DNA from: Gammaproteobacteria bacterium
GTDB lineage: Bacteria; Pseudomonadota; Gammaproteobacteria; UBA4575
Reading direction: 5' to 3'
Assembly (NCBI GenBank): GCA_026706595.1
Contig: JAPOYL010000011.1
Span: 69,686 to 133,685 of the forward strand
DNA: 64,000 nucleotides
A program made the translations under genes and the position numbers. Shown here in pieces: positions 30,285 to 40,663 of this stretch; position 1 is the first letter of the stretch; the number at the start of each line of letters is the position of its first letter. A model generated the notes under the pieces. The model did not search any database. It was given only the letters and a program-made list of their open reading frames with translations, and was not told where the DNA came from.

Positions 30285-30552
30285 CAAGGCGGTAGTGCCT
30301 CTCAGGAACTGGAAAACGGGGTGTCCGGCGGTTGAGCGGGTCGGTTTTGGGAGCCTGCAGAAGTCAGGCTGGCCCAGGGACGACAGCGGTGGCAAAACCG
30401 AGTGCTACAGGTGATTTTATGGTGTGCAAATAGGTAAACGATTGCGTACTGTTGGCCGATCTGGTAAGGCACCCCAAAAATAAACATAAACATTTGAATT
30501 TAATACACTTTTTAAGGTGATGCCTGCACCTTTCATGCAAACATCGGAGTAT

Positions 30553-30581
30553 TTGCAGTTACAGAATCATGCTTGTATAAT
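30553..30581 (+). promoter_or_regulatory. candidate sigma70 promoter with extended -10, for the alkB-like gene
   Basis: TTGCAG at 30553-58, a 17-nt spacer, then TGnTATAAT at 30574-81, in the AT-rich region after clpB. A 5'UTR of about 130 nt leads to the GGAGG RBS at 30699. Confidence 0.5.
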
Positions 30582-30714
30582 CGAGCGTATCTAATGCCCC
30601 CGAATGGGCGAGTGTCCGTGTGGATATACAGGTCATGAGAGAGGGCAACGGAAAAAGATATGCTAAACAATTAAATTTGTAGTTAACCGAGCGAATGCTG
30701 GAGGTGCATATACA

Positions 30715-31869
30715 ATGATGAAACTTATGATTAACGCAAGGTACTGGTTCGCCCCGATCCTGATCATCGTCACGATGTTCGGAGTACTGATGGGCGGCAT
30801 GTTCGTATGGGTCGGACTGCTGCTGTTGGGCGTTGGTATCGTGATCGACACAGCCATGAAGTGGCAAAGTTCCGGTGCAGGCTTTGACCGGAGCGGAGAA
30901 ACGATGGGTGTGCCCTGGCTACAGAACAGCGTGATGTACGTCATGTTGGGAGTATTCGTACTCCTGCAACTGGCGCTCGCATGGCGTATCTACCAGTACG
31001 TCAATGGTGTCCCGCTGAGTGCCGGGTTCGACCATGTCATGTTTGGATTCCTGCCTTATATGAATGGAATCTCCGGACTTGACCTGATCGGTGCCACGAT
31101 ATCCTCAGGCATCTTTGCCGGTATTGGTATTATTTATGGACATGAACTGAGCCATACGAAGGGATTTGCCTTTGCCATTTCCCGCTCAATGATGGCGCTG
31201 AGTGGCAAAGCTCACTTCAGCTATGCACATGTCTATAACCACCATCTGGAACTGGCACACGAAGATGATCCTGCTACGTCACCGCGTGGAAGAACCATCT
31301 ACCGACACTATCCATTGGCCGGAATCGGGCAGTCCCGCTTCCTGTACAGAATGGAGAAGCAACGTCTGGAGCGTCTGGGCAAATCCTGGTTCACATGGGA
31401 AAATCGCTGGCTGCGTGGCTATGCCATGAGCCTGCCGACCCTGTTCCTGTTCTGGTTTGCCGGCGGCTGGATTGGTATTGCCTGCCTGTCAGTTGTATGG
31501 CTGATCTCAAACTTTGAGCTCGAAGCCCTCAACTACATGGAGCATTACGGCTTGATTCGTGAGAAGGGACAGCCGATTGACTATCGTCATTCATGGGACA
31601 ACGCAACAGCGTTCACCAGCTGGTTCTTCATCGAGATTGGCCGTCAGGCAGATCACCATGACCGTGGTGAAACCCACTTCTGGGAGCTGGATGACGTAGG
31701 TGCTCCTAACACCGGATGGGGTTACTTCACCTTGTTTGCCATCGCGCTCATACCGCCGCTTTACCACATGTATATGAAGAAGGAACTGGCAAAGTGGGAC
31801 AGAGAGCGTGCCTCAGAGGGCGAGCGTGCGATTGCTGATCGCCTCAACCGTCAGGTTGGTTACGCTTAA
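30715..31869 (+). CDS. AlkB-family integral-membrane non-heme di-iron hydroxylase (alkane 1-monooxygenase-like / fatty acid desaturase superfamily)
   Basis: His boxes in AlkB order: HELSHTK, HVYNHH followed by DPATSPRGRT (AlkB has EHNKGHH...DPATSRMGE), NYMEHYGL, and RQADHH (the first His of box 3 is replaced by Gln). N-terminal TM helices. Strong RBS. Confidence 0.8.
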   Translation: MMKLMINARYWFAPILIIVTMFGVLMGGMFVWVGLLLLGVGIVIDTAMKWQSSGAGFDRSGETMGVPWLQNSVMYVMLGVFVLLQLALAWRIYQYVNGVPLSAGFDHVMFGFLPYMNGISGLDLIGATISSGIFAGIGIIYGHELSHTKGFAFAISRSMMALSGKAHFSYAHVYNHHLELAHEDDPATSPRGRTIYRHYPLAGIGQSRFLYRMEKQRLERLGKSWFTWENRWLRGYAMSLPTLFLFWFAGGWIGIACLSVVWLISNFELEALNYMEHYGLIREKGQPIDYRHSWDNATAFTSWFFIEIGRQADHHDRGETHFWELDDVGAPNTGWGYFTLFAIALIPPLYHMYMKKELAKWDRERASEGERAIADRLNRQVGYA

Positions 31870-31892
31870 GCTCTGATTTCGGAGAACGCAAA

Positions 31893-31943
31893 TTTTTAGC
31901 ATAGTCATGTGCCCGGGCTTCGTCCCGGGCACATGCGCTAAAA
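31893..31943. terminator. bidirectional rho-independent terminator-like hairpin
   Basis: TTTTT, then ATGTGCCCGGG cttcgt CCCGGGCACAT (11-bp GC-rich stem), then AAAAA. Located directly after the alkB-like stop. Confidence 0.55.
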
Positions 31944-32378
31944 AGAAGCGTTGAATGACGGGGGAAAGCCGGGAACAAAAACAAGGAGAAGATCCCGGCG
32001 AATAACACCTGCGGTCGATAAGAAGAAACTGGACCACGGTGTCGATGAACGACAGGCTGATCTAAACGTTCTGTATGCGAGTCGCACTGTGGAAAGTCCA
32101 GGCAGGAAAGAATAACAATTTGTAATTATCGGTCTTGGGGCCGACACGGCAAGAATCAAGACGGTAAACTTCAATCCTGTACCCAGTGGGCACAGGAGCA
32201 GAGGGGCTCGGGGTCTGGAACCCTGGCATTTACAGATATCAGGAGGACGCTATAAACGTTATGTGCGTGTAGCCGCAGGGACGGCTTATTCTATCCTGAC
32301 TGTTTTTACTACCCTGGGTGACCGGCTTAGGTAACCCCGGACATAACAAACAACTCCAAACATAACGAGGTATAAACA

Positions 32379-33059
32379 ATGTTAGGTGATCATTTGGCGG
32401 ACAAAATGAAATTTTATGGGAACCCCTCATGCCTGCGCAGCGCGATGTGCATGTTCACCGCTGCCGAGAAGGGCGTGGACTTAGAGGGCCACTTTGTCGA
32501 TCCCAATGGAACGGGTGCGGCTGACGTTCAGGCGCTTGCGCCGCATGGCTTGTTGCCTGTACTGAAGGACGTCGATTTCGTCGTTTGCGGACAACAAGGC
32601 ATCATGTCCTATCTGGACGACAAGGGCTTTGGTCCATCCCTGATTCCCCGTAATGGCGTCGTGCGTGCAATCCACTACATGTGGAATCAGCTCGCCACCG
32701 ATATTGCACTGGACGCAGTTGCTGGATTGATGTCCGGTACTGGGGATGCTGCAGCCGCATCGGGGTGCTTCGATCTTCTGAATTCGCATCTGGCATCCAA
32801 GAGCAATCCTGCGCTGCGCGGTGATTTCATTTGTGGAGCCTTCAGTCTCGCAGATATCCACTGGGCTGCCCTGGCACAAGGCTGCATGCTTGCCGACAGC
32901 AGCGATGTGGTGGAGTCCAGACCGGCCGTTGCAAAATGGTGGGGCCTGGTCAAGTCGCATCCCAGCACGAGCAAGGAAAACATCCGCGGCTATGATGTGC
33001 TTCCGACCAAGACGGACATCAGCGGCAACAGCCTGCGTGGTGTCACGATTAATGTCTAG
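32379..33059 (+). CDS. glutathione S-transferase-fold protein, paralog 1
   Basis: Thioredoxin-like N-domain (KFYGNPSC...GLLPVLKDVDFVV.GQQGIMSYL) and a helical C-domain (GAFSLADIHW, KWW). RBS GAGG. Confidence 0.7.
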   Translation: MLGDHLADKMKFYGNPSCLRSAMCMFTAAEKGVDLEGHFVDPNGTGAADVQALAPHGLLPVLKDVDFVVCGQQGIMSYLDDKGFGPSLIPRNGVVRAIHYMWNQLATDIALDAVAGLMSGTGDAAAASGCFDLLNSHLASKSNPALRGDFICGAFSLADIHWAALAQGCMLADSSDVVESRPAVAKWWGLVKSHPSTSKENIRGYDVLPTKTDISGNSLRGVTINV

Positions 33060-33354
33060 AAGGGCTGGGCCTCTTACTATTCATTAATCACGGGTTTCCT
33101 TGAAAGCGGACCTGCAGGGCGGCATCGTCCGGTCAGGTCCCGGGGAAACACGAGCAAGTTATTATGGATTGACCTTGGTGGGAATGCCGGGGTTGGTCGT
33201 GAAGCGACGATGCCTTGAGTCCCTTGGCAGAGGGACCCGGGTGGATGGCGCTTCAAGAAAAGAATTTACGGGCCACAGGGTTTTCAGATTACTCTGGGGG
33301 ACTCCGGTTGCATTATAAATACTCGAATTTAATCTGAGTCAGGAGGTGTGACTA

Positions 33355-33561
33355 ATGTATTCATTCAGAGCAATCGTTGTGATGCTGATATTTTCTGCGG
33401 CCGTCTACTACGGCATGGGTATGCTGGGTCTCACTGCAGCCCATTCCGATCCCTTGATGGCGCTTGCCGGAGCAGTGGTCCTGCTGGTGGCTTTGGTCAT
33501 CAACGTATGGATCTATCTCAAGCTCGCTGGCGAGCATCCGTTTAAATGGTTCAAGGAGTAG
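33355..33561 (+). CDS. small two-TM membrane protein (68 aa), unknown function
   Basis: Strong RBS AGGAGGTG 7 nt upstream. Two predicted TM helices. Followed by a strong hairpin. Confidence 0.55.
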   Translation: MYSFRAIVVMLIFSAAVYYGMGMLGLTAAHSDPLMALAGAVVLLVALVINVWIYLKLAGEHPFKWFKE

Positions 33562-33627
33562 AATCCTCCTACTAAAGGAAGCCATTCGTAGCGCGCAAGC
33601 GCGATCCTAATAAAAAGTGTCAGGCAA

Positions 33628-33666
33628 CTGGACCTGGAGCAAACGAATGTTTGCTCCAGGTCCAGC
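33628..33666 (+). terminator. strong stem-loop (17-bp perfect inverted repeat), probable terminator/attenuator
   Basis: CTGGACCTGGAGCAAAC gaatg GTTTGCTCCAGGTCCAG. No canonical U-tract follows. Confidence 0.45.
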
Positions 33667-33739
33667 CAGCCGTTCTGTAAAAAACCGGACAAAAGGGCGC
33701 CTACAGCTCGAGTCTGTCATAGCAGCTACATAACTGACA

Positions 33740-34408
33740 ATGGGACTATTTTCACGCAAAAAGAAACCTGCCGAGAAGGTTCGTCTACTCGGTCATCCTG
33801 GACATGCCGATACCTGCAAGAGCCTGTACCTGGGTGCTGAAAAAGGGGTTCAGCTGGATCCCGAACTCATTGACATCCGAAGCGAACAGTATCCAGATGA
33901 GACACTGCGGTCAGTGTCACCTTTTGGCAAGCTTCCTTGCCTGGTTGAGGGAGAGGTGGTCACCTCCGGTATTGCGGCCGTATTGCCTTACCTGGATGTG
34001 CGTGGCGGCGGGCAACCGCTGACACCCCGCAAGGCACAGCATTTGGGCACCCAGAATTACTGGATCGAGGTGGGTGCACAGCAGGTGCAGCCAAGGATCG
34101 AGGCCCTGGTGGATGGCCAGCCTGCAGAGGAAGCCAAAGATGGATTGCAAAAGATCTTTGATGGCATGGATGCACATCTGCAAGGCAAGGAGTGCATAGT
34201 TGGCGCATTTTCCTTTGCAGATGTCCATTGGGTGGCCTACCTGCACCTGTTGCATGTAGCAGGCCAGAACAGCCTCATCGACGAGCGGCCCAACCTGAAA
34301 GCCTGGTTCGAGCATATGAAGGTCCGCAAAGGCAGTCACGGCATTGCCTATACGGCTATGCCGTCGGCAGCGGACATTCAGCGAGGCGGATTTGCGAACG
34401 CCGCCTGA
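33740..34408 (+). CDS. glutathione S-transferase-fold protein, paralog 2
   Basis: GKLPCLVEGEVV.TSGIAAVLPYL, GAFSFADVHW, KAWFEHM. Same architecture as paralogs 1 and 3. Confidence 0.65.
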   Translation: MGLFSRKKKPAEKVRLLGHPGHADTCKSLYLGAEKGVQLDPELIDIRSEQYPDETLRSVSPFGKLPCLVEGEVVTSGIAAVLPYLDVRGGGQPLTPRKAQHLGTQNYWIEVGAQQVQPRIEALVDGQPAEEAKDGLQKIFDGMDAHLQGKECIVGAFSFADVHWVAYLHLLHVAGQNSLIDERPNLKAWFEHMKVRKGSHGIAYTAMPSAADIQRGGFANAA

Positions 34409-34454
34409 ACGGCAGAGCACGTTGGTCTGACACCCCTTTGGAGCCACAACGAAT

Positions 34455-35237
34455 ATGAGTGATTTGTTTGAGTTCGGCCGTGCAGCGGACCCGACGGCGA
34501 GCAGCCAGTACGGGGCAAGCGGCGATATGAAAAAAACCCAGTACGTGCTGCAGCTGCTGGGATTCCCGGGGGATGCGGGAACGCTGAAATGCTTGGTCAC
34601 GGCGGTGGAAGTGGGCATGGAGACTGATTGCGGGATTCTCGATATCACGGCAGGTGCCCATGAGTCGGGTGACTACCTGCAGGTCTCGCCACTAGGCTTG
34701 GTGCCTGCACTCAAGGAAGCCGATTACATCGTCACCGGAGAGTTGGGTATCATGAGCTATATCGAGGCCCGGGGGCTGGGCAAGCGCCTGCCACCCAAGA
34801 ATGCAGGCCTGCTGGCTGCCCAGAACTACTGGGGCGATCTTGCCTGCAGCGAGGCCAAACCGCATGTGGAGTCGATCGTGCAGCAGCGCATTTACGCACC
34901 GATGCAGGGCAAAGACTCTGATGGTGTGGCGGTGGACCAAGCCCGTTCGGGGCTTTCCGCGGTGCTGGATGCCCTGGACGGACAGCTTGCCGGCAAGGAA
35001 TTCATTATCGGAGACTATTCATTCGCTGATATCCACTGGACAGCTTACGTTCATCTCCTGTATGAGGCGGGAGAAGGGGATTTGGTTGATTCCCGCGCCA
35101 ATATCAAGGCCTGGTTTGACCGTATCCGGACACACAAGAGCTATTGCGGGCAGGACATCGTGGCATATGACCTGCTTCCGAAGCTTGAAGGCATAAAAAA
35201 CAAGCAGTTGCACTCGGTGGAAGTGTCAGACTATTGA
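34455..35237 (+). CDS. glutathione S-transferase-fold protein, paralog 3 (with N-terminal ~25-aa extension)
   Basis: LGLVPALKEADYIV.GELGIMSYI, GDYSFADIHW, KAWFDRI. RBS GGAG. Confidence 0.7.
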   Translation: MSDLFEFGRAADPTASSQYGASGDMKKTQYVLQLLGFPGDAGTLKCLVTAVEVGMETDCGILDITAGAHESGDYLQVSPLGLVPALKEADYIVTGELGIMSYIEARGLGKRLPPKNAGLLAAQNYWGDLACSEAKPHVESIVQQRIYAPMQGKDSDGVAVDQARSGLSAVLDALDGQLAGKEFIIGDYSFADIHWTAYVHLLYEAGEGDLVDSRANIKAWFDRIRTHKSYCGQDIVAYDLLPKLEGIKNKQLHSVEVSDY

Positions 35238-35270
35238 TTATCGAGTACCGGTGGGGAAGAATGACGGATC

Positions 35271-35711
35271 ATGTGGGGATCATCTAAAAAACAGGACCGT
35301 CAGATCAAGGGTGTTACCGGTGCCATTACACCTTTTGTCACGGATACGCTGGGCAGGCTGGACCCGGAAGATCTCGAGGAAGCCTCGATCAAGCGCAAGT
35401 ATGCGATTTACTACATCTACGGTGCCGTTTTATACTTGGCCGAGTATGATGACCTGGGCAAGGACGTCAAGGCGGTACTGGTCACCAATATCCTGGGCGA
35501 GCAAATGAGCGTCGATCAGGCGGCGATTGACAAACTGCCGGTGACCGAGGACCATGCAGATGCTGTGAGGGAAACGCAGTTCATGATTGAGGGGGCCAGT
35601 GCACTGCGCAACTGGCTGACCACAGGGGAACGCGAAAAGAACGCCGCGTACCTGAAGGAGTTGCTGGATAACCCGGACTGTATAACCGGGGAGAGTGAAA
35701 CAGAGCACTGA
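35271..35711 (+). CDS. hypothetical acidic soluble protein (146 aa)
   Basis: ORF sits 33 bp after GST paralog 3 and is probably co-transcribed. No motif recognised. Confidence 0.45.
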   Translation: MWGSSKKQDRQIKGVTGAITPFVTDTLGRLDPEDLEEASIKRKYAIYYIYGAVLYLAEYDDLGKDVKAVLVTNILGEQMSVDQAAIDKLPVTEDHADAVRETQFMIEGASALRNWLTTGEREKNAAYLKELLDNPDCITGESETEH

Positions 35712-35808
35712 ATCGATTGAATTTTAGGCAGGCCTGGGTATTCGCATAAATGATATTCAGGCGTTATGATAAGTTTAGCGGCAAAAAACAATTAAAAAGG
35801 AGGCGTGT

Positions 35809-35916
35809 ATGTCTGATGGTGGAGGAAATGATGCCATGGTATTCGTGGTCGCAATGGTCTTCGGCGTTGCTGTGATCGTACTCACGTTATACCTGGCTGG
35901 CTTAATTCCTATGTAA
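35809..35916 (+). CDS. small hydrophobic peptide (35 aa, single TM), not in ORF track
   Basis: atg at 35809 preceded by AAAAGGAGG at a 7-nt spacing. Translation MSDGGGNDAMVFVVAMVFGVAVIVLTLYLAGLIPM, then TAA. Confidence 0.5.
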   Translation: MSDGGGNDAMVFVVAMVFGVAVIVLTLYLAGLIPM

Positions 35917-36605
35917 AAAATGGTTCGGGAGCAGAGGGGCTCCTGATCCGTATTCAATTTGCGAAAGGGGGGTTGCAACTTATCCCAGGCTCGTCAAATC
36001 GGCAGACCTGCCGATTTGACCCGTGGGGGCGCAGCCCGTCTCCCTTTCCCGCCCTATAAATCTTTCAGGTTCTTACAGAAAATCTGCCCGGGATTCAGGT
36101 ACAAATACCCGAGACTTTTCCTTTATGCCTGCATATCTGATCATGTTTTGATCACTTTAGAGGGATGATGGGCTGAAGTCCTGGATCAGGGAGTAAAAAA
36201 ACATCGATTCGTGAGGTACGCCTTCAGGTCATGATTCAGTCTACGGGGTACCATTTGCCTTGATTTCACGGTAATATTCGTTACACTTATATGACAAGTA
36301 CGCAGCACCTATAGTGATCCGACCGAAAGGGGCAGGAATAGGCGGCTGTAGAGACATAAGAATCAGGCTGCTCAAAGCCGCGATAGAGAGGAAAAAGGGG
36401 GATCTGGATTGACACTGACAGCAATATGCAATGCCAGCCTCAATTCAATCTGTACAACTTACTTCTGTCAAAACCAAATCGTCAGCCACCTGTAAATCAT
36501 ACGACTAGCGGCTGACATGAGAATAAGAAATTCAAACAAAATTTTAGTTAGCAAAATTCATCGTAACCAATCAAACAAGACTACTTATAACCGGGAGGGT
36601 AACCA

Positions 36606-38132
36606 ATGAGAGAAGTTTTTAATCGGTGGTTAGCAATTGCGTTGCTGGCATCGCTGGCCATTTCAGGGACTGCCTATGCAGGCCCGTACGGCTACGATCT
36701 GCACAACGTGCTGGCTCCACGTTCAGCGGGTATGGCGGGTACCAGCATTGCCAAGCCTCTGGATAACGTGTCGGCAATCTTTGGTAACCCTGCCGCATTG
36801 ACGGACTGGACGGGAACGGAGTTCACGTTTGGTGCCACTTACTACAAGCCCGAAGTCAGACTGGATCACTCGGGGGCCTTCAATCTTCCGACCTATGCAG
36901 GTTCGGTACCTGATGCTGTCTTTGGTGAATTTGCGGTACCGGGGCATTCTAAAGAAGGAGGTACTGCCATCGTATGCGGTAACCCAAACGCGTTCTGTAT
37001 TCCCGATGCAGCATTTGACGACGCGGTCAACGGCAACGAGGGCTACATCGTACCGCAGGTGGGTGTGACACAGGATCTGCGGCCGCTCGGCTTGCCCGCT
37101 GTACTGGGCGCGGGACTGACCGCTGTTTCTGGTATCGGTGTGGAGTTTCGTCATGTTGAAGAAACCCTGGGACTGGGCGCGGAGTTCATCGTCCTGGGCG
37201 CGAACTTCTCCCTTGGCTGGGAGCTGAATGAGCGGGTATCTATTGGTGGTGCAGCTACGATAACGTATGCCTACTTGGACCTTGGCTTAGCAGCGACTTC
37301 AGGCGTAACTCATGACACCGGCATGCGTGGAACACTAGGCTTGACTTACGAAGATATCTTGCCAGGTACCCGGTTGGGCGTGTTCTACATGACGGAACTA
37401 CAGCATGTGTTTGACGACATTATTGCCGTACCGCCTGATGATTATGCGCCAGCGCAAGGTGACGCATTCGAAGGATATGGTGACGATGCACCGGTTCGCT
37501 ACGCCTCCATTCCTATTGAGGAGCCGCGTACGATTGGTATCGGCATCTCCAATGAGACCTTCATGGACGGCAACCTGCTGGTTGCAGCCGATGTGATGTG
37601 GAAGAACTGGGAAGAGGCCGACTTCTGGGGCGATGTCTACGAGGACCAGATGGTCTACAGCATCGGTGCCCAGATGAAGATGGGCAACTGGCGTTTCCGT
37701 GCCGGGTATGGCTATGCCGATGATCCGACGGATCGAGATGCACAGGGCGTCAAGGGACTACCCTATGTCTGCTCTTCAGCAACGAGATGTAATGTAATCC
37801 CTGTAGGCAGTGGGAATGACAGCATATTGCATCTTGGGCAATCAGTCCTTGAGTACCTGCAGGCTTCACAGACCGAGGTGATCTATCGCCACCGCGCCAC
37901 GCTAGGTGTGGGGTACATGGGCTTCCTGGCTCCGTTCCTGAACATTGACGGCCATGTAGGCGTGCAGTTCAAGGAGCGCAACCACTACAGTGCGGGTCCT
38001 GTCCAGACAGCAGGCGTTGTTAGTGCTAATGGGGTAGACCTAGGTCCTTTTGATGGATCAGCAACAACCACGGCCGCAGATGTCTGGTCTTGGCATGCAG
38101 GCTTTGCTCTGACCTGGAACTTCCAGTACTGA
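36606..38132 (+). CDS. FadL/TodX-family outer-membrane hydrophobic-compound transporter
   Basis: Signal peptide ending AYA. N-terminal hatch motif IFGNPAAL (the NPA motif of FadL/TodX). Alternating beta-strand pattern. C-terminal aromatic WNFQY. Confidence 0.75.
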   Translation: MREVFNRWLAIALLASLAISGTAYAGPYGYDLHNVLAPRSAGMAGTSIAKPLDNVSAIFGNPAALTDWTGTEFTFGATYYKPEVRLDHSGAFNLPTYAGSVPDAVFGEFAVPGHSKEGGTAIVCGNPNAFCIPDAAFDDAVNGNEGYIVPQVGVTQDLRPLGLPAVLGAGLTAVSGIGVEFRHVEETLGLGAEFIVLGANFSLGWELNERVSIGGAATITYAYLDLGLAATSGVTHDTGMRGTLGLTYEDILPGTRLGVFYMTELQHVFDDIIAVPPDDYAPAQGDAFEGYGDDAPVRYASIPIEEPRTIGIGISNETFMDGNLLVAADVMWKNWEEADFWGDVYEDQMVYSIGAQMKMGNWRFRAGYGYADDPTDRDAQGVKGLPYVCSSATRCNVIPVGSGNDSILHLGQSVLEYLQASQTEVIYRHRATLGVGYMGFLAPFLNIDGHVGVQFKERNHYSAGPVQTAGVVSANGVDLGPFDGSATTTAADVWSWHAGFALTWNFQY

Positions 38133-38152
38133 TTAAAGTCAGTAGTCTTTTG

Positions 38153-38187
38153 GAAAAAAGGGGTGGCATATGCCACCCCTTTTTTTG
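38153..38187. terminator. rho-independent terminator (bidirectional)
   Basis: AAAAAA, then GGGGTGGCATATGCCACCCC (a perfect 20-nt palindromic hairpin), then TTTTTTTG. Confidence 0.85.
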
Positions 38188-38327
38188 TTTCTGACCATAT
38201 TCCCAAAAGTTCCATTTGAGAATACAGGGACTAGTCCCTATCAGAGCCTTGTACAGTCCAAATTATTGGAATTTCAAATTTGATCATAGACATGTCATAT
38301 CAGCTTTTTCTAACAACACCCGTTTCA

Positions 38328-38374
38328 TTTCTGTATAATTCATCTGGTTGATCAATCGTTTCTGTATACAGAAA
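38328..38374 (+). promoter_or_regulatory. candidate promoter (-10 TATAAT at 38334-39) plus perfect 16-bp palindromic operator TTTCTGTATACAGAAA (38359-38374)
   Basis: Direct repeat TTTCTGTATA at 38328 and 38359. The second copy forms the perfect palindrome, 52 bp upstream of the precursor ATG. Confidence 0.5.
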
Positions 38375-38426
38375 TTGTGCCTTGCTCCGCAGGACACACA
38401 TAACAATTGTTGGAGGTTTTATAACG

Positions 38427-38807
38427 ATGGATAAGAAACGTCGTGATTTTAATAAGCTGATGGTGGCTGCAGCAGCTGGATTGATGGCTGGAAGCCAGAC
38501 GGTTGCCTTGGCGGGTCACCCGGGCCATGAAGGTTGTCCGAAGCATAGCTGTAAAGGCCAGAATGAATGCAAGGGCAAGGGTGGCTGCAAGTCAAGCGAC
38601 AACGGTTGCGCAGGCAAGAACTCATGCAAGGGCAAGGGTGGTTGTGATCCAGCCCACACGTATGAGAAGCATGCCTGTAAGGGCCAGAATGCCTGCAAAT
38701 GCCAGGGTGGCTGCAAGTCAGGTGACAACGGCTGTGCCGGTAAAAATTCATGTAAAGGCAAGGGTGGCTGCCAGCTTCCAGTTGACCCCAGCCACATGGA
38801 AGGATAA
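38427..38807 (+). CDS. Cys-rich exported precursor-like protein (bufferin/HvfA-like, DUF2282-type), 126 aa, 13 Cys
   Basis: GGAGG RBS. Twin-arginine signal KRRDFNKLMVAAAAGLMAGSQTVALA. Two 34-aa repeats, each with 6 Cys in a CKGQNxCKGKGGCKSxDNGCAGKNSCKGKGGC pattern. Immediately upstream of a DUF692/DUF2063 pair. Confidence 0.75.
   Translation: MDKKRRDFNKLMVAAAAGLMAGSQTVALAGHPGHEGCPKHSCKGQNECKGKGGCKSSDNGCAGKNSCKGKGGCDPAHTYEKHACKGQNACKCQGGCKSGDNGCAGKNSCKGKGGCQLPVDPSHMEG
38544..38771 (+). repeat. tandem intragenic repeat (2 units of ~102 nt, period ~126 nt) encoding the 6-Cys modules
   Basis: Near-identical nucleotide blocks (tgcaagggcaagggtggctgcaagtca...). They explain the overlapping repetitive ORF-track translations at 38503-38835 on both strands. 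Confidence 0.8.
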
Positions 38808-38967
38808 GCAGTACCTAGCAACTCACTTGTTGTAAAGTTCTGACATTTCCAAAAACGGTTTGAGCATCAACAGGGCTACCGAGTACGGTATGCCCTGTTG
38901 ATTGCTTGAATCCTTTCTCTACTGGTAACATGCTTACCAGGCAAATCTGATTCACAAGGTGGTTTCT

Positions 38968-39819
38968 GTGTCTGTAAAAAACCGCTGGAACTTCCCTGAC
39001 CTTGGACTTGGAATCGGGCTTCGCACAGTCCATTTCAATCACGTTCTTGAACACTGGCCCAAGGTGGACTGGTTCGAGATCCTGTCCGAGAATTTCATGA
39101 ACACGGAAGGAAATCCCGTACGTGTGCTGGACCAGATTGCAGAACGCTACCCGATTGTCATGCACGGGGTTTCCATGTCGATCGGCAGCACGGACCCCAT
39201 CGATTTTGACTACTTCACAAGGCTGAAGGCCCTGGCCGAACGGGTGAACGCCCACTGGCTTGGAGACCATGTCTGCTGGACCGGGGTGCATGGGAAAAAC
39301 GGCCACGACCTCTATCCGCTGCCCTACAATGAGGAATCCTTGGCCTTTCTAGTGGACAGGATACGCACCGTCCAGGATTTCCTGGAGCGTCCCCTGATCC
39401 TGGAGAACCCCTCGACCTACCTGGCCTTTGCAAATTCCACCATGCCCGAAGAGGAATTCCTGGCCCGCATGGCCGAGGAGTCGGACTGCGGACTGCTGCT
39501 GGACGTCAACAACGTCTATGTCACCTGCCGCAACCACGGACTGGATTCCATGGCTTATCTGGATGCGCTCCCCTATGACCGGGTGGTGCAGATTCATCTG
39601 GCCGGGCATACCGACAAGGGTACGCACTGCATCGACACGCACAACGGCCGGGTCATTGACCCGGTGTGGGACCTGTATGCCGAGGTTCAGCGCCGCGCCG
39701 GAAACCGTGCCACGTTGATTGAGTGGGATGCCGACATTCCTTCGTTTGAAGAGGTCCATGCCGAGGTTCTGAAGGCGGCGCAATTCCGCCAGATGACCGA
39801 ACTGCGCCATGCCTCGTGA
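38968..39819 (+). CDS. DUF692 family protein (MbnB/BufB/HvfB-like multinuclear-iron TIM-barrel enzyme)
   Basis: Xylose-isomerase-like TIM barrel with conserved His/Asp/Glu ligand pattern (HGVSMSIGS..., HVCWTG, ENPSTY, QIHLAGH, LIEWD). GTG start with AAGGTGG RBS. The track ORF starts 9 nt upstream. Confidence 0.8.
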
Positions 39820-40663
39820 CGACTCGCGGCTGGAAAGCCTCGAGCAATGGATGTATTTGGTCGTAAGCCACCCTGAGGGTGCCAAGGCCGGAGTCGAAGC
39901 AAGTTCCAAGCTGGATAGTGACGCGGCACACGACCTTGAACAAACCGTCCTGCCTTCCGATAAACTGACTCCGCTGGAGTGCGTCTCGGTCTATGCCGAC
40001 ATGTACTTCTGGCGATTTATCGAGATTATGGCCGGGGAATACCCGACCGTGCAGCACATCCTTGGAGAGGAGTTGTTCAACCAAGTAGTCAGGGATTACA
40101 TTGCACATCATCCCTCGACGCACTACAACCTGAATCGCCTGAGCATCAAGTTCCCGCATTACCTGGAAAAGGAGGTCACGGATCTTCCGCACCAGCCTTT
40201 TGTGGTTGCAATCGCCACGGTTGAACGTGTCATGGAGGATGCCTTCGATGACCCGCATCGGGAGAAGATCTCCCCGGAGGCTATCCAGAGCATCCCGGGG
40301 GAGCAATGGGGCGACATCCGGCTGCAGTTCAACCCGGCCCTGTATCTACTGGAACTGGATTATCCGGTCAATGACTATATGACGGCGGTGAATGAAAACC
40401 GCCATATGGACATCCCGCAGGCCGATAAGACATTTGTCGTGGTGTATCGTTGCGATTACACGGTCTGGCGTGAAGACCTGGACTATGAAAGCTACCTGCT
40501 GTTATCGCGGCTTAAGGACGGGGAGTCCTTGGGTGAAGCCCTAGAGAGTTGCACCCTGCAAGAAGGTGTTGACGCCGACAAGATTACGGCCAGCTTGGGT
40601 GAGTGGTTTCAGCGATGGACTGCCCAGGAATTCTTCTGCGGTCTTGAAATCGATTCTGATTGA
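39809..40663 (+). CDS. DUF2063 family protein (MbnC/BufC/HvfC-like partner)
   Basis: Overlaps the DUF692 stop by 11 nt, suggesting translational coupling. About 280 aa, consistent with the obligate DUF692-DUF2063 pairing. Confidence 0.7.

Follow-up and report, generated by a model that had tools for sequence, protein, structure and literature searches.

Three GST-fold proteins with a predicted loss of the glutathione site in an AlkB/XylM-type monooxygenase island of Gammaproteobacteria

In this work, we analyzed a stretch of 64,000 nucleotides (nt), referred to as the window, from a Gammaproteobacteria bacterium of the UBA4575 lineage (assembly GCA_026706595.1, contig JAPOYL010000011.1, positions 69,686 to 133,685 of the forward strand), focusing on three tandem genes, named GST1, GST2, and GST3, whose products share the fold of glutathione S-transferases (GSTs). 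The three proteins (the trio) are most likely not glutathione-conjugating enzymes, since their canonical glutathione site is predicted to be lost; the chances are about even that they represent cytoplasmic, glutathione-independent accessory proteins of a conserved gene island of marine bacteria whose core is an AlkB/XylM-type monooxygenase. Within this island, GST1 is part of the hydroxylase module, and GST2 and GST3 always occur as an adjacent gene pair. In the literature, we found no description of such an AlkB-GST system in these bacteria. The three genes, all intact open reading frames (ORFs), are the following:

GST1, 32379-33059, + strand: GST-fold protein of 226 amino acids (aa); N-terminal extension MLGDHL..KM; Cys18 at the catalytic position; Gly71 in place of the glutathione-binding Glu.
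GST2, 33740-34408, + strand: GST-fold protein of 222 aa; N-terminal MGLFSRKKK; His22 at the catalytic position; Gly77-Ile78 in place of Glu-Ser.
GST3, 34455-35237, + strand: GST-fold protein of 260 aa; Asp40 at the catalytic position; Gly95-Glu96 in place of Glu-Ser.

An earlier note, made from the DNA letters alone, had described the three genes as tandem and divergent GST-fold paralogs; this description proved right in its coordinates, in the divergence of the three genes (28-32% pairwise identity), and in the fold, for which hidden Markov models (HMMs), the PDB, and AlphaFold all provided support. At the DNA level, the surviving trace of the paralogy is a repeat of 47 nt present in three copies around the ADIHW motif. 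Pfam GST_C scored above its cut-off in GST2 and GST3, and GST1 remained narrowly under that of GST_N_2 (24.5 vs 25 bits). Probing the PDB with phmmer retrieved plant Phi-class GSTs for GST3 (E 1e-21), Phi-class GSTs for GST2 (E 6.5e-14), and, with roughly equal values, SspA (2e-7) and the Phi class (4e-7) for GST1. The AlphaFold models obtained from the family alignments had a pLDDT of 91.7 and a pTM of 0.90 (GST1) and a pLDDT of 89.1 and a pTM of 0.89 (GST3), and Foldseek superposed both of them best on Phi-class GSTs (TM-score, target-normalized, up to 0.85). The cytosolic GST fold, i.e., a thioredoxin-like beta-alpha-beta-alpha-beta-beta-alpha N-domain with a cis-Pro before beta3, and a helical C-domain with an S/T-x-x-D N-capping box (SFAD/SLAD in the trio), is thus recognizable in GST1 and GST3 from AlphaFold and Foldseek and in GST2 from HMMs and phmmer. 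The C-domain motif that the earlier note had singled out is indeed present in the three proteins, in the form G[AD][FY]S[FL]AD[IV]HW ... K[AW]W[FW], but it matches the ordinary Phi-type alpha6/alpha7 core and does not represent a special signature.

The best matches in both sequence and structure are the plant Phi-class GSTs (poplar GSTF7, 5F06; AtGSTF9, 6F05; maize GST III, 1AW9), with which the trio shares the alpha6 "S.AD.H" and alpha7 "KAWW" elements, the cis-Pro, and a basic residue at Arg16. Nevertheless, the trio does not belong to this class, whose members carry a catalytic Ser in a P-x-S motif and share about 40% identity or more: the identity to Phi structures is 19-27%; the Ser is replaced by Cys/Asp, His, and Asp; the Glu66-Ser67, Gln53, and His40-Lys41 contacts are gone; and the proteins are bacterial, are encoded in an operon, and possess additional conserved N- and C-terminal extensions. 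In a neighbor-joining tree, the GST1, GST2, and GST3 groups were monophyletic with respect to the Phi enzyme and ordinary bacterial GSTs, with GST1 and GST3 as sister groups. Furthermore, a profile search of 1.84 billion representative proteins returned only 23 sequences at E <= 1e-30, after which the scores dropped to generic GST levels. The trio is therefore one small and distinct clade, placed by sequence and fold near the Phi class and not with the LigE/F or beta enzymes among which the earlier note had proposed to look for it. Its named members are Sedimenticola, Candidatus Thiodiazotropha, Thiogranum, Thiohalocapsa, and Methylophaga sulfidovorans, together with many uncultured Gammaproteobacteria, and in databases the family is annotated everywhere as "glutathione S-transferase family protein".

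To survey the glutathione-binding site (G-site), poplar GSTF7 was aligned with each of the three families (GST1, 56 relatives; GST2, 36 sequences from the loci described below; GST3, 59 relatives). In active GSTs, glutathione is held by a Glu/Gln-Ser/Thr pair that opens alpha3, by a polar side chain preceding the cis-Pro, and by a basic or His pair within alpha2; none of the three families keeps this set. Glu66, which holds the gamma-glutamyl amine, is replaced by Gly in 56/56 GST1, 58/59 GST3, and 30/36 GST2 sequences. The following position (Ser67) is Thr in 42 of the 56 GST1 sequences, Glu or Asp in 48 of the 59 GST3 sequences, and variable in GST2. Gln53 and the His40-Lys41 pair are replaced as well. 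The structural cis-Pro is invariant. These data lead us to predict that canonical glutathione binding has been lost in the trio.

As for catalysis, active GSTs require a Ser, Cys, or Tyr at the start of alpha1, and no such residue is a conserved feature here: the catalytic position is occupied by Cys (40) or Asp (16) in the GST1 family; by Asp (37), His (14), Gln (5), or Asn (3) in the GST3 family; and by Asp (20), His (6), Asn (6), Gln (3), or Thr (1) in the 36 GST2 sequences. The earlier note had placed a Cys or Ser there in all three proteins; this applies to GST1 (C18, within NPSC), the only member of the window trio with a Cys at the true catalytic position, and not to GST2 (His22) and GST3 (Asp40), whose previously noticed Cys residues lie four and six residues further along helix alpha1. 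Even for GST1, the orthologues of Sedimenticola, Thiodiazotropha, and Chromatiaceae have an Asp. The "KC" Cys, six residues on from the catalytic position, alternates with Val, Ala, Leu, or Ile and aligns with Val17 of the Phi class; from helix geometry, it looks like a buried structural residue. Membership in the Cys-type classes (omega, beta, lambda, DHAR, and LigG) would imply a catalytic Cys, an intact glutathione site, and the closest similarity to those classes. The Cys occurs in GST1 alone, where Glu66 is a Gly; omega and lambda structures rank below the Phi class in the Foldseek search with GST1; and the beta-class GstA model scores 17-22 bits against a cut-off of 198. The Cys-type (omega/beta/LigE-like) chemistry previously suggested for these proteins is not supported by a family whose nearest class is Phi, whose catalytic position is not conserved, and whose G-site residues are replaced. 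The earlier note had also considered that the proteins might neither bind glutathione nor match GST-fold HMMs, or might be ubiquitous housekeeping GSTs conserved at this locus; the HMM matches do exist and it is the binding that is predicted to be lost, and the genes are indeed conserved in relatives, but within a specialized island.

The N-terminal leaders before beta-1, already pointed out in the earlier note, are 9 (GST1), about 13 (GST2), and 31 aa (GST3) long, and the orthologues keep them from residue 1; they cannot be regarded as signal peptides because they lack a hydrophobic core. That of GST2 (MGLFSRKKK) combines an LF motif with a polybasic run, and that of GST3 follows the pattern M.DLF.FG...YG..GDMKKTQY. 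Two further elements are conserved in a family-specific manner: the linker between the domains (+G.G..L.P+N) and a C-terminal tail shared by GST1 and GST3 (H.S.S... LP...DI....L..V.I). In GST3, this tail ends in D[YF], and the AlphaFold model predicts it with high confidence. According to the general topology of GSTs, extensions, linker, and tail should be placed off the active-site cleft, so that a docking surface fits them better than a catalytic pocket. In the window lineage, the ratio of non-synonymous to synonymous substitution rates (dN/dS) of the three genes is 0.05-0.19, indicating purifying selection, with GST2 as the fastest-evolving one.

The positions of the cluster proteins were then mapped in genomes (33 loci) and metagenomes (31 loci, each 10 kb or longer); the loci are designated below by L and a number. 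The tie between the trio and the adjoining AlkB-like oxygenase, which the earlier note had assumed, was supported by a synteny conserved across many lineages, in which two modules can be distinguished. Module A includes the AlkB/XylM-type monooxygenase, a protein of 66-77 aa with two transmembrane (TM) helices, GST1, and a FadL/TodX or OmpW channel; most lineages add to it genes for a truncated globin, a Fer4_19 ferredoxin of 60 aa, and a XylA/BenC/MmoC-type Fer2-FAD-NAD reductase, and GST1 lies in relatives between the ferredoxin and reductase genes. One locus (L070) harbors a compact AlkB-GST1-sm-FadL module without GST2 and GST3. Module B consists of GST2 directly 5' of GST3, an order found in all 33 genome loci and all 31 metagenome loci. 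In Methylophagaceae, both genes have been duplicated together, and the two products of the pair probably form a heterodimer. A 439-aa "GST2-GST3 fusion" (P0371), which could have been taken as a Rosetta stone for such a heterodimer, was rejected, being a frameshifted read-through with an out-of-frame middle. Upstream of the pair, there are typically genes for an ACAD-like flavoprotein, a FixL-like kinase, and a FixJ-like regulator; alternatively, the pair is divergent from fnr. The product of the latter is a bona fide Fnr (270 bits, cut-off 228); the FixJ-like regulator scored slightly under its cut-off (234.5 vs 255 bits) and the FixL-like kinase far below its own, and the kinase is not called an oxygen sensor here because inspection by eye revealed no evident proximal-His heme motif. 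An AlkB-like gene lies within 10 kb of GST2-GST3 in about two-thirds of the loci, and FadL or OmpW recurs beside the island in other lineages.

In the window, the trio is surrounded by the following elements:

AlkB-like gene, 30715-31869, + strand: AlkB/XylM-type integral-membrane di-iron monooxygenase of 384 aa (Pfam FA_desaturase, 87 bits; His motifs).
Non-coding gap, 31870-32378, no strand: site of the truncated globin and small Fer4_19 ferredoxin genes in relatives (gene order of L015-L020 and L078).
Non-coding gap, 33060-33354, no strand: site of the Fer2-FAD-NAD (XylA/BenC/MmoC-type) reductase gene in relatives.
sm68, 33355-33561, + strand: small protein, predicted to span the membrane with two TM helices, whose C-terminus has a conserved PFKW motif.
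p146, 35271-35711, + strand: conserved 146-aa ORF without a Pfam family, following GST3 here and in Thiogranum-type clusters.
FadL gene, 36606-38132, + strand: FadL/TodX-family outer-membrane channel for hydrophobic compounds (Pfam Toluene_X, 38.5 bits).

The AlkB-like protein is a member of the AlkB/XylM membrane di-iron monooxygenases, as it has the FA_desaturase domain, the His boxes (HELSH, HVYNHH, NYMEHYGL, and RQADHH are all kept), and the NYxEHYGL element. It matches AlkB in the PDB (8sbb) with an E of 3e-28 and is about 30% identical to plasmid AlkB and to XylM of the TOL plasmid pWW0 alike; because it has no NCBIfam equivalog matches, it is to be regarded as a separate subfamily. The top 120 of its 1227 homologues are all at least 68% identical to it, and its dN/dS is 0.03-0.08. 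sm68 (no Pfam match; dN/dS 0.05-0.08) is present in the island wherever the AlkB-like gene is and missing where the latter is missing. Moreover, the relatives' hydroxylase is accompanied, as in the XylM/XylA system, by a XylA/BenC/MmoC-type reductase and a FadL/OmpW channel; the FadL-type channel of XylM/XylA is XylN, and AlkB goes with AlkL. Unlike this island, XylMA and AlkBGT have no small ferredoxin, truncated globin, two-TM peptide, or three GST-fold proteins. In the window, tblastn (E <= 10) retrieved no remnants of globin, ferredoxin, reductase, or regulator genes; globin, ferredoxin, and reductase are lost in this small-genome lineage, while the hydroxylase stays highly conserved. The remaining island genes of the window are under purifying selection (dN/dS 0.03-0.19, with p146 at 0.12-0.32).

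On the whole, both the lack of glutathione binding and the accessory role of the trio are what we infer from these data. A small hydrophobic substrate would pass the FadL-type channel and be hydroxylated in the inner membrane by the AlkB/XylM-type enzyme; the GST-fold proteins would act on the cytoplasmic side without glutathione, binding or processing a labile product or, alternatively, using the conserved extensions at their two termini to dock the hydroxylase and its partners together. Non-catalytic GST folds acting as adaptors or heterodimers do exist, as in SspA, MglA-SspA, and FzlA.

Regarding the substrate, the foremost candidates are dimethylsulfide (DMS) and related methyl-sulfur compounds, on account of the Xyl-like gene set, the outer-membrane channels, the mtoX/pdo/sqr neighbors, and the induction of similarly annotated genes on DMS. 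In several lineages, genes for methanethiol oxidase (MtoX, SBP56) with SCO1/MauG, for a fusion of persulfide dioxygenase (PDO) and rhodanese, and of the SQR type are part of the island or adjoin it, namely, in Arenicellales (L005), Cocleimonas (L020), Methylophaga (L031 and L032, continuous with L062), and the marine metagenome contigs L110, L111, L112, and L115. The genes of L112 run MtoX, SCO1/MauG, TlpA, hydrolase, ACAD, kinase, regulator, GST2, GST3, PDO, SQR, ..., AlkB-like. Furthermore, in the RNA-seq comparison of Methylophaga thiooxydans on DMS and on methanol (PMC6548844, Table S6), the values are 1359 vs 10 for a "fatty acid desaturase domain protein", 1469 vs 18 for a FadL-type "membrane protein, aromatic hydrocarbon degradation", 618 vs 12 for an "oxidoreductase NAD-binding domain", and 601 vs 21 for glbN. 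These four genes, annotated like island components, are thus induced about 30-140-fold on DMS, and mtoX, SCO1/MauG, sqr, and the gene of the rhodanese-PDO fusion rise along with them (PMC6548844). The same authors remark that the enzyme opening DMS breakdown has yet to be found and might be an unrecognized monooxygenase; a 2025 preprint also states that the enzyme converting DMS to methanethiol in MtoX bacteria is unknown (bioRxiv 10.64898/2025.12.05.692423). It is conceivable, though we consider it rather unlikely, that the island performs this very step, with a membrane DMS methyl-hydroxylase yielding methanethiol and formaldehyde and the GST-fold proteins handling the hemithioacetal or the methanethiol on its way to MtoX, PDO, and SQR. 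If the island does turn DMS into methanethiol and formaldehyde before MtoX, the flavin-dependent DMS monooxygenase DmoAB of Hyphomicrobium would be its functional analogue; the protein families are unrelated, and no DmoA homologue is involved.

Several observations weigh against an accessory, glutathione-independent role and a methyl-sulfur substrate. Of the 56 GST1 relatives, 40 have a Cys at the catalytic position and 42 a Thr at the Ser67 position, so that residual thiol chemistry is possible for GST1, and in GST3 the acidic residue one position past the lost Glu (48 of 59) might act as a partial substitute. About one-third of the GST2-GST3 loci have no AlkB-like gene within 10 kb, and AlkB-like genes stand alone in L064 and L069; since the two occur apart, their physical or functional coupling is not obligatory. 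The window lineage itself has no globin, ferredoxin, or reductase, and MtoX, SQR, and PDO were not found in the 64-kb window. The M. thiooxydans genes were equated with those of the island by annotation match alone, and the GST genes are unnamed in the tables of PMC6548844. Finally, FNR control and globins fit a microoxic stress role equally.

This last explanation, unlikely in our judgment, sees the island as a module for microoxic conditions or for nitrosative or sulfide stress and not as a catabolic one, with globin, ferredoxin, and reductase acting on O2 or NO, the AlkB-like enzyme remodeling membrane lipids when O2 is low, and the GST-fold proteins serving as stress-protective ligand-binding or redox proteins. 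Six loci that represent about four lineages (L030, L040, L041, L043, L046, and L047) do have perfect FNR boxes (TTGAT-N4-ATCAA) in the promoter region of GST2, and boxes with one mismatch lie 64-136 nt upstream of AlkB-like and OmpW genes, near the bona fide fnr (L041, L043, and L046); in these cases, a monooxygenase that requires O2 appears to be under anaerobic or microoxic activation. In addition to fnr and the truncated globins, some lineages have as neighbors NorD/CbbO-like VWA, CbbQ/NorQ AAA+, nitronate monooxygenase, and alternative oxidase genes, and the authors of the M. thiooxydans study read the desaturase as maintaining membrane lipids under H2O2 stress (PMC6548844). However, the FadL/OmpW channels by the hydroxylase suggest a hydrophobic substrate of exogenous origin, the combination of hydroxylase, reductase, and channel is reminiscent of XylM/XylA/XylN, and both the co-location with MtoX/PDO/SQR and the roughly 100-fold induction on DMS fit a catabolic role. 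In the window, a single FNR box with one mismatch was found, far from the cluster and at chance level.

A second possibility, which we deem very doubtful, is that GST2 and GST3, and perhaps GST1, are regulators similar to SspA or MglA-SspA, i.e., a non-catalytic heterodimer acting on RNA polymerase or on FixJ/FNR and tuning the transcription of the island. SspA and the Francisella MglA-SspA pair are GST folds that do not use glutathione, and the latter, a heterodimer of paralogues, is a precedent for GST2-GST3; SspA has lost its G-site, as the trio is predicted to have done. The best solved relatives of GST1 are SspA proteins, its best NCBIfam matches are the non-catalytic SspA and FzlA, and in many loci the pair immediately follows the FixJ-like regulator gene or is transcribed divergently from fnr. 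Nevertheless, the SspA model reaches 35.5 and 20.9 bits against an NCBIfam equivalog cut-off of 314; GST2 and GST3 are nearer to Phi-class enzymes; many loci have no regulator beside the pair, which in the window sits between sm68 and p146; the context is that of a membrane monooxygenase island; and no feature for binding DNA or RNA polymerase was identified in the trio.

The least probable explanation is the one advanced in the earlier note, in which active Cys/Ser-type GSTs would carry out conjugation and lyase reactions, in sequence or with complementary stereochemistry, on an epoxide or ether that the oxygenase produces, as LigE/LigF/LigG, IsoI, or StyI/StyJ do: the confirmed fold, the Cys of the window GST1, the conserved linkage with an oxygenase, and the likeness to those systems in having several GST-fold genes by an oxygenase or catabolic cluster speak for it, but those enzymes need glutathione binding and a catalytic residue, whereas here the G-site Glu is a Gly in essentially all members and the other glutathione contacts are gone, GST2 and GST3 have Asp, His, Asn, or Gln at the catalytic position and GST1 an Asp in 16 of 56, the nearest classes are Phi and SspA (LigF ranks only 44th as a distant structural match of the GST3 model in Foldseek), the island has no downstream genes for processing glutathione adducts, and no lignin-ether, isoprene, or styrene catabolic genes were found in the neighborhoods of more than 60 loci, the comparison with IsoI and StyI/StyJ being one of gene neighborhoods.

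Other genes accompany the island in particular lineages. A VWA protein of the NorD/CbbO type (670-730 aa) is encoded divergently from the island or just after it (L062 of M. sulfidovorans, L005, L015-L018, L110, and L112), in L062 with a CbbQ/NorQ AAA+ partner; speculatively, it could help to mature the metal centre of the di-iron hydroxylase. In one Methylophaga-like lineage (L065-L067, 11367-11993), GST3 has an alternative oxidase (AOX) gene as its neighbor, and a small SCO4226-like protein (PF14026) follows the FadL gene in three lineages (L062, 12641-12916; L070, 12623-12895). No Fnr, OmpW, or VWA genes were found in the 64-kb window. p146 has no detectable relation to the 70-aa ORF, itself without a Pfam family, that follows GST3 in Sedimenticola-type clusters.

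Between the window genes and upstream of the FadL gene, we also noticed the following elements:

Single-TM ORF, 35809-35916, + strand: 35 aa (MSDGGGNDAMVFVVAMVFGVAVIVLTLYLAGLIPM), with a conserved ribosome-binding site (AAAGGAGG).
Conserved palindrome, 35993-36020, upstream of the FadL gene: 13-bp arms (GTCAAATCGGCAG-N2-CTGCCGATTTGAC).
Nearly invariant block of 42 nt, 36249-36290, upstream of the FadL gene: TACCATTTGCCTTGATTTCACGGTAATATTCGTTACACTTAT.

The short ORF is kept in L011, L013, and L014, with changes mostly of the synonymous type. The sequence flanking the palindrome and the 42-nt block is saturated with changes across the same loci; the former is probably a terminator or operator, and the latter probably a promoter or operator. 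A hairpin occurs right after the stop codon of the AlkB-like gene, and a perfect inverted repeat of 17 nt with a 4-nt loop (33628-33665) lies between the sm68 stop and the GST2 start, which may be an intra-operon hairpin (an attenuator or an RNA-stability element). Promoter and terminator scans of 30300-38400 did not exceed the shuffled expectation, and Rfam gave no match above threshold. The AlkB-like and sm68 genes show, with respect to L010 and L011, a synonymous divergence (dS) of 0.10-0.21, three to six times below the 0.4-1.0 of their neighbors, which suggests for these two genes alone either strong codon constraint or recent recombination.

Downstream of the FadL gene, there are genes for a Cys-rich secreted peptide with a twin-arginine-type leader and a weak DUF7640 match (38382-38807), for a DUF692 enzyme of the MbnB/TglH/ChrH family (38959-39819, 353 bits), and for a DUF2063/HvfC protein (39809-40663). 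This cluster (38382-40663) appears to be of the bufferin type of ribosomally synthesized and post-translationally modified peptides; its synteny extends to L006, L013, and L014, and it also occurs in L033.

The family-wide loss of the G-site suggests that the name "glutathione S-transferase", under which the trio is annotated, misleads as to its function. The same may apply to the hydroxylase, which is about 70% conserved across the sampled sulfur-oxidizing and methylotrophic Gammaproteobacteria and goes by the name of alkane 1-monooxygenase in several databases: should alkanes not be its substrates, this label may mislead where such genes serve as markers of hydrocarbon degradation. In turn, with its location near mtoX, pdo, and sqr and with apparent Methylophaga counterparts induced about 100-fold on DMS, the island represents a concrete candidate for the enzyme converting DMS to methanethiol.

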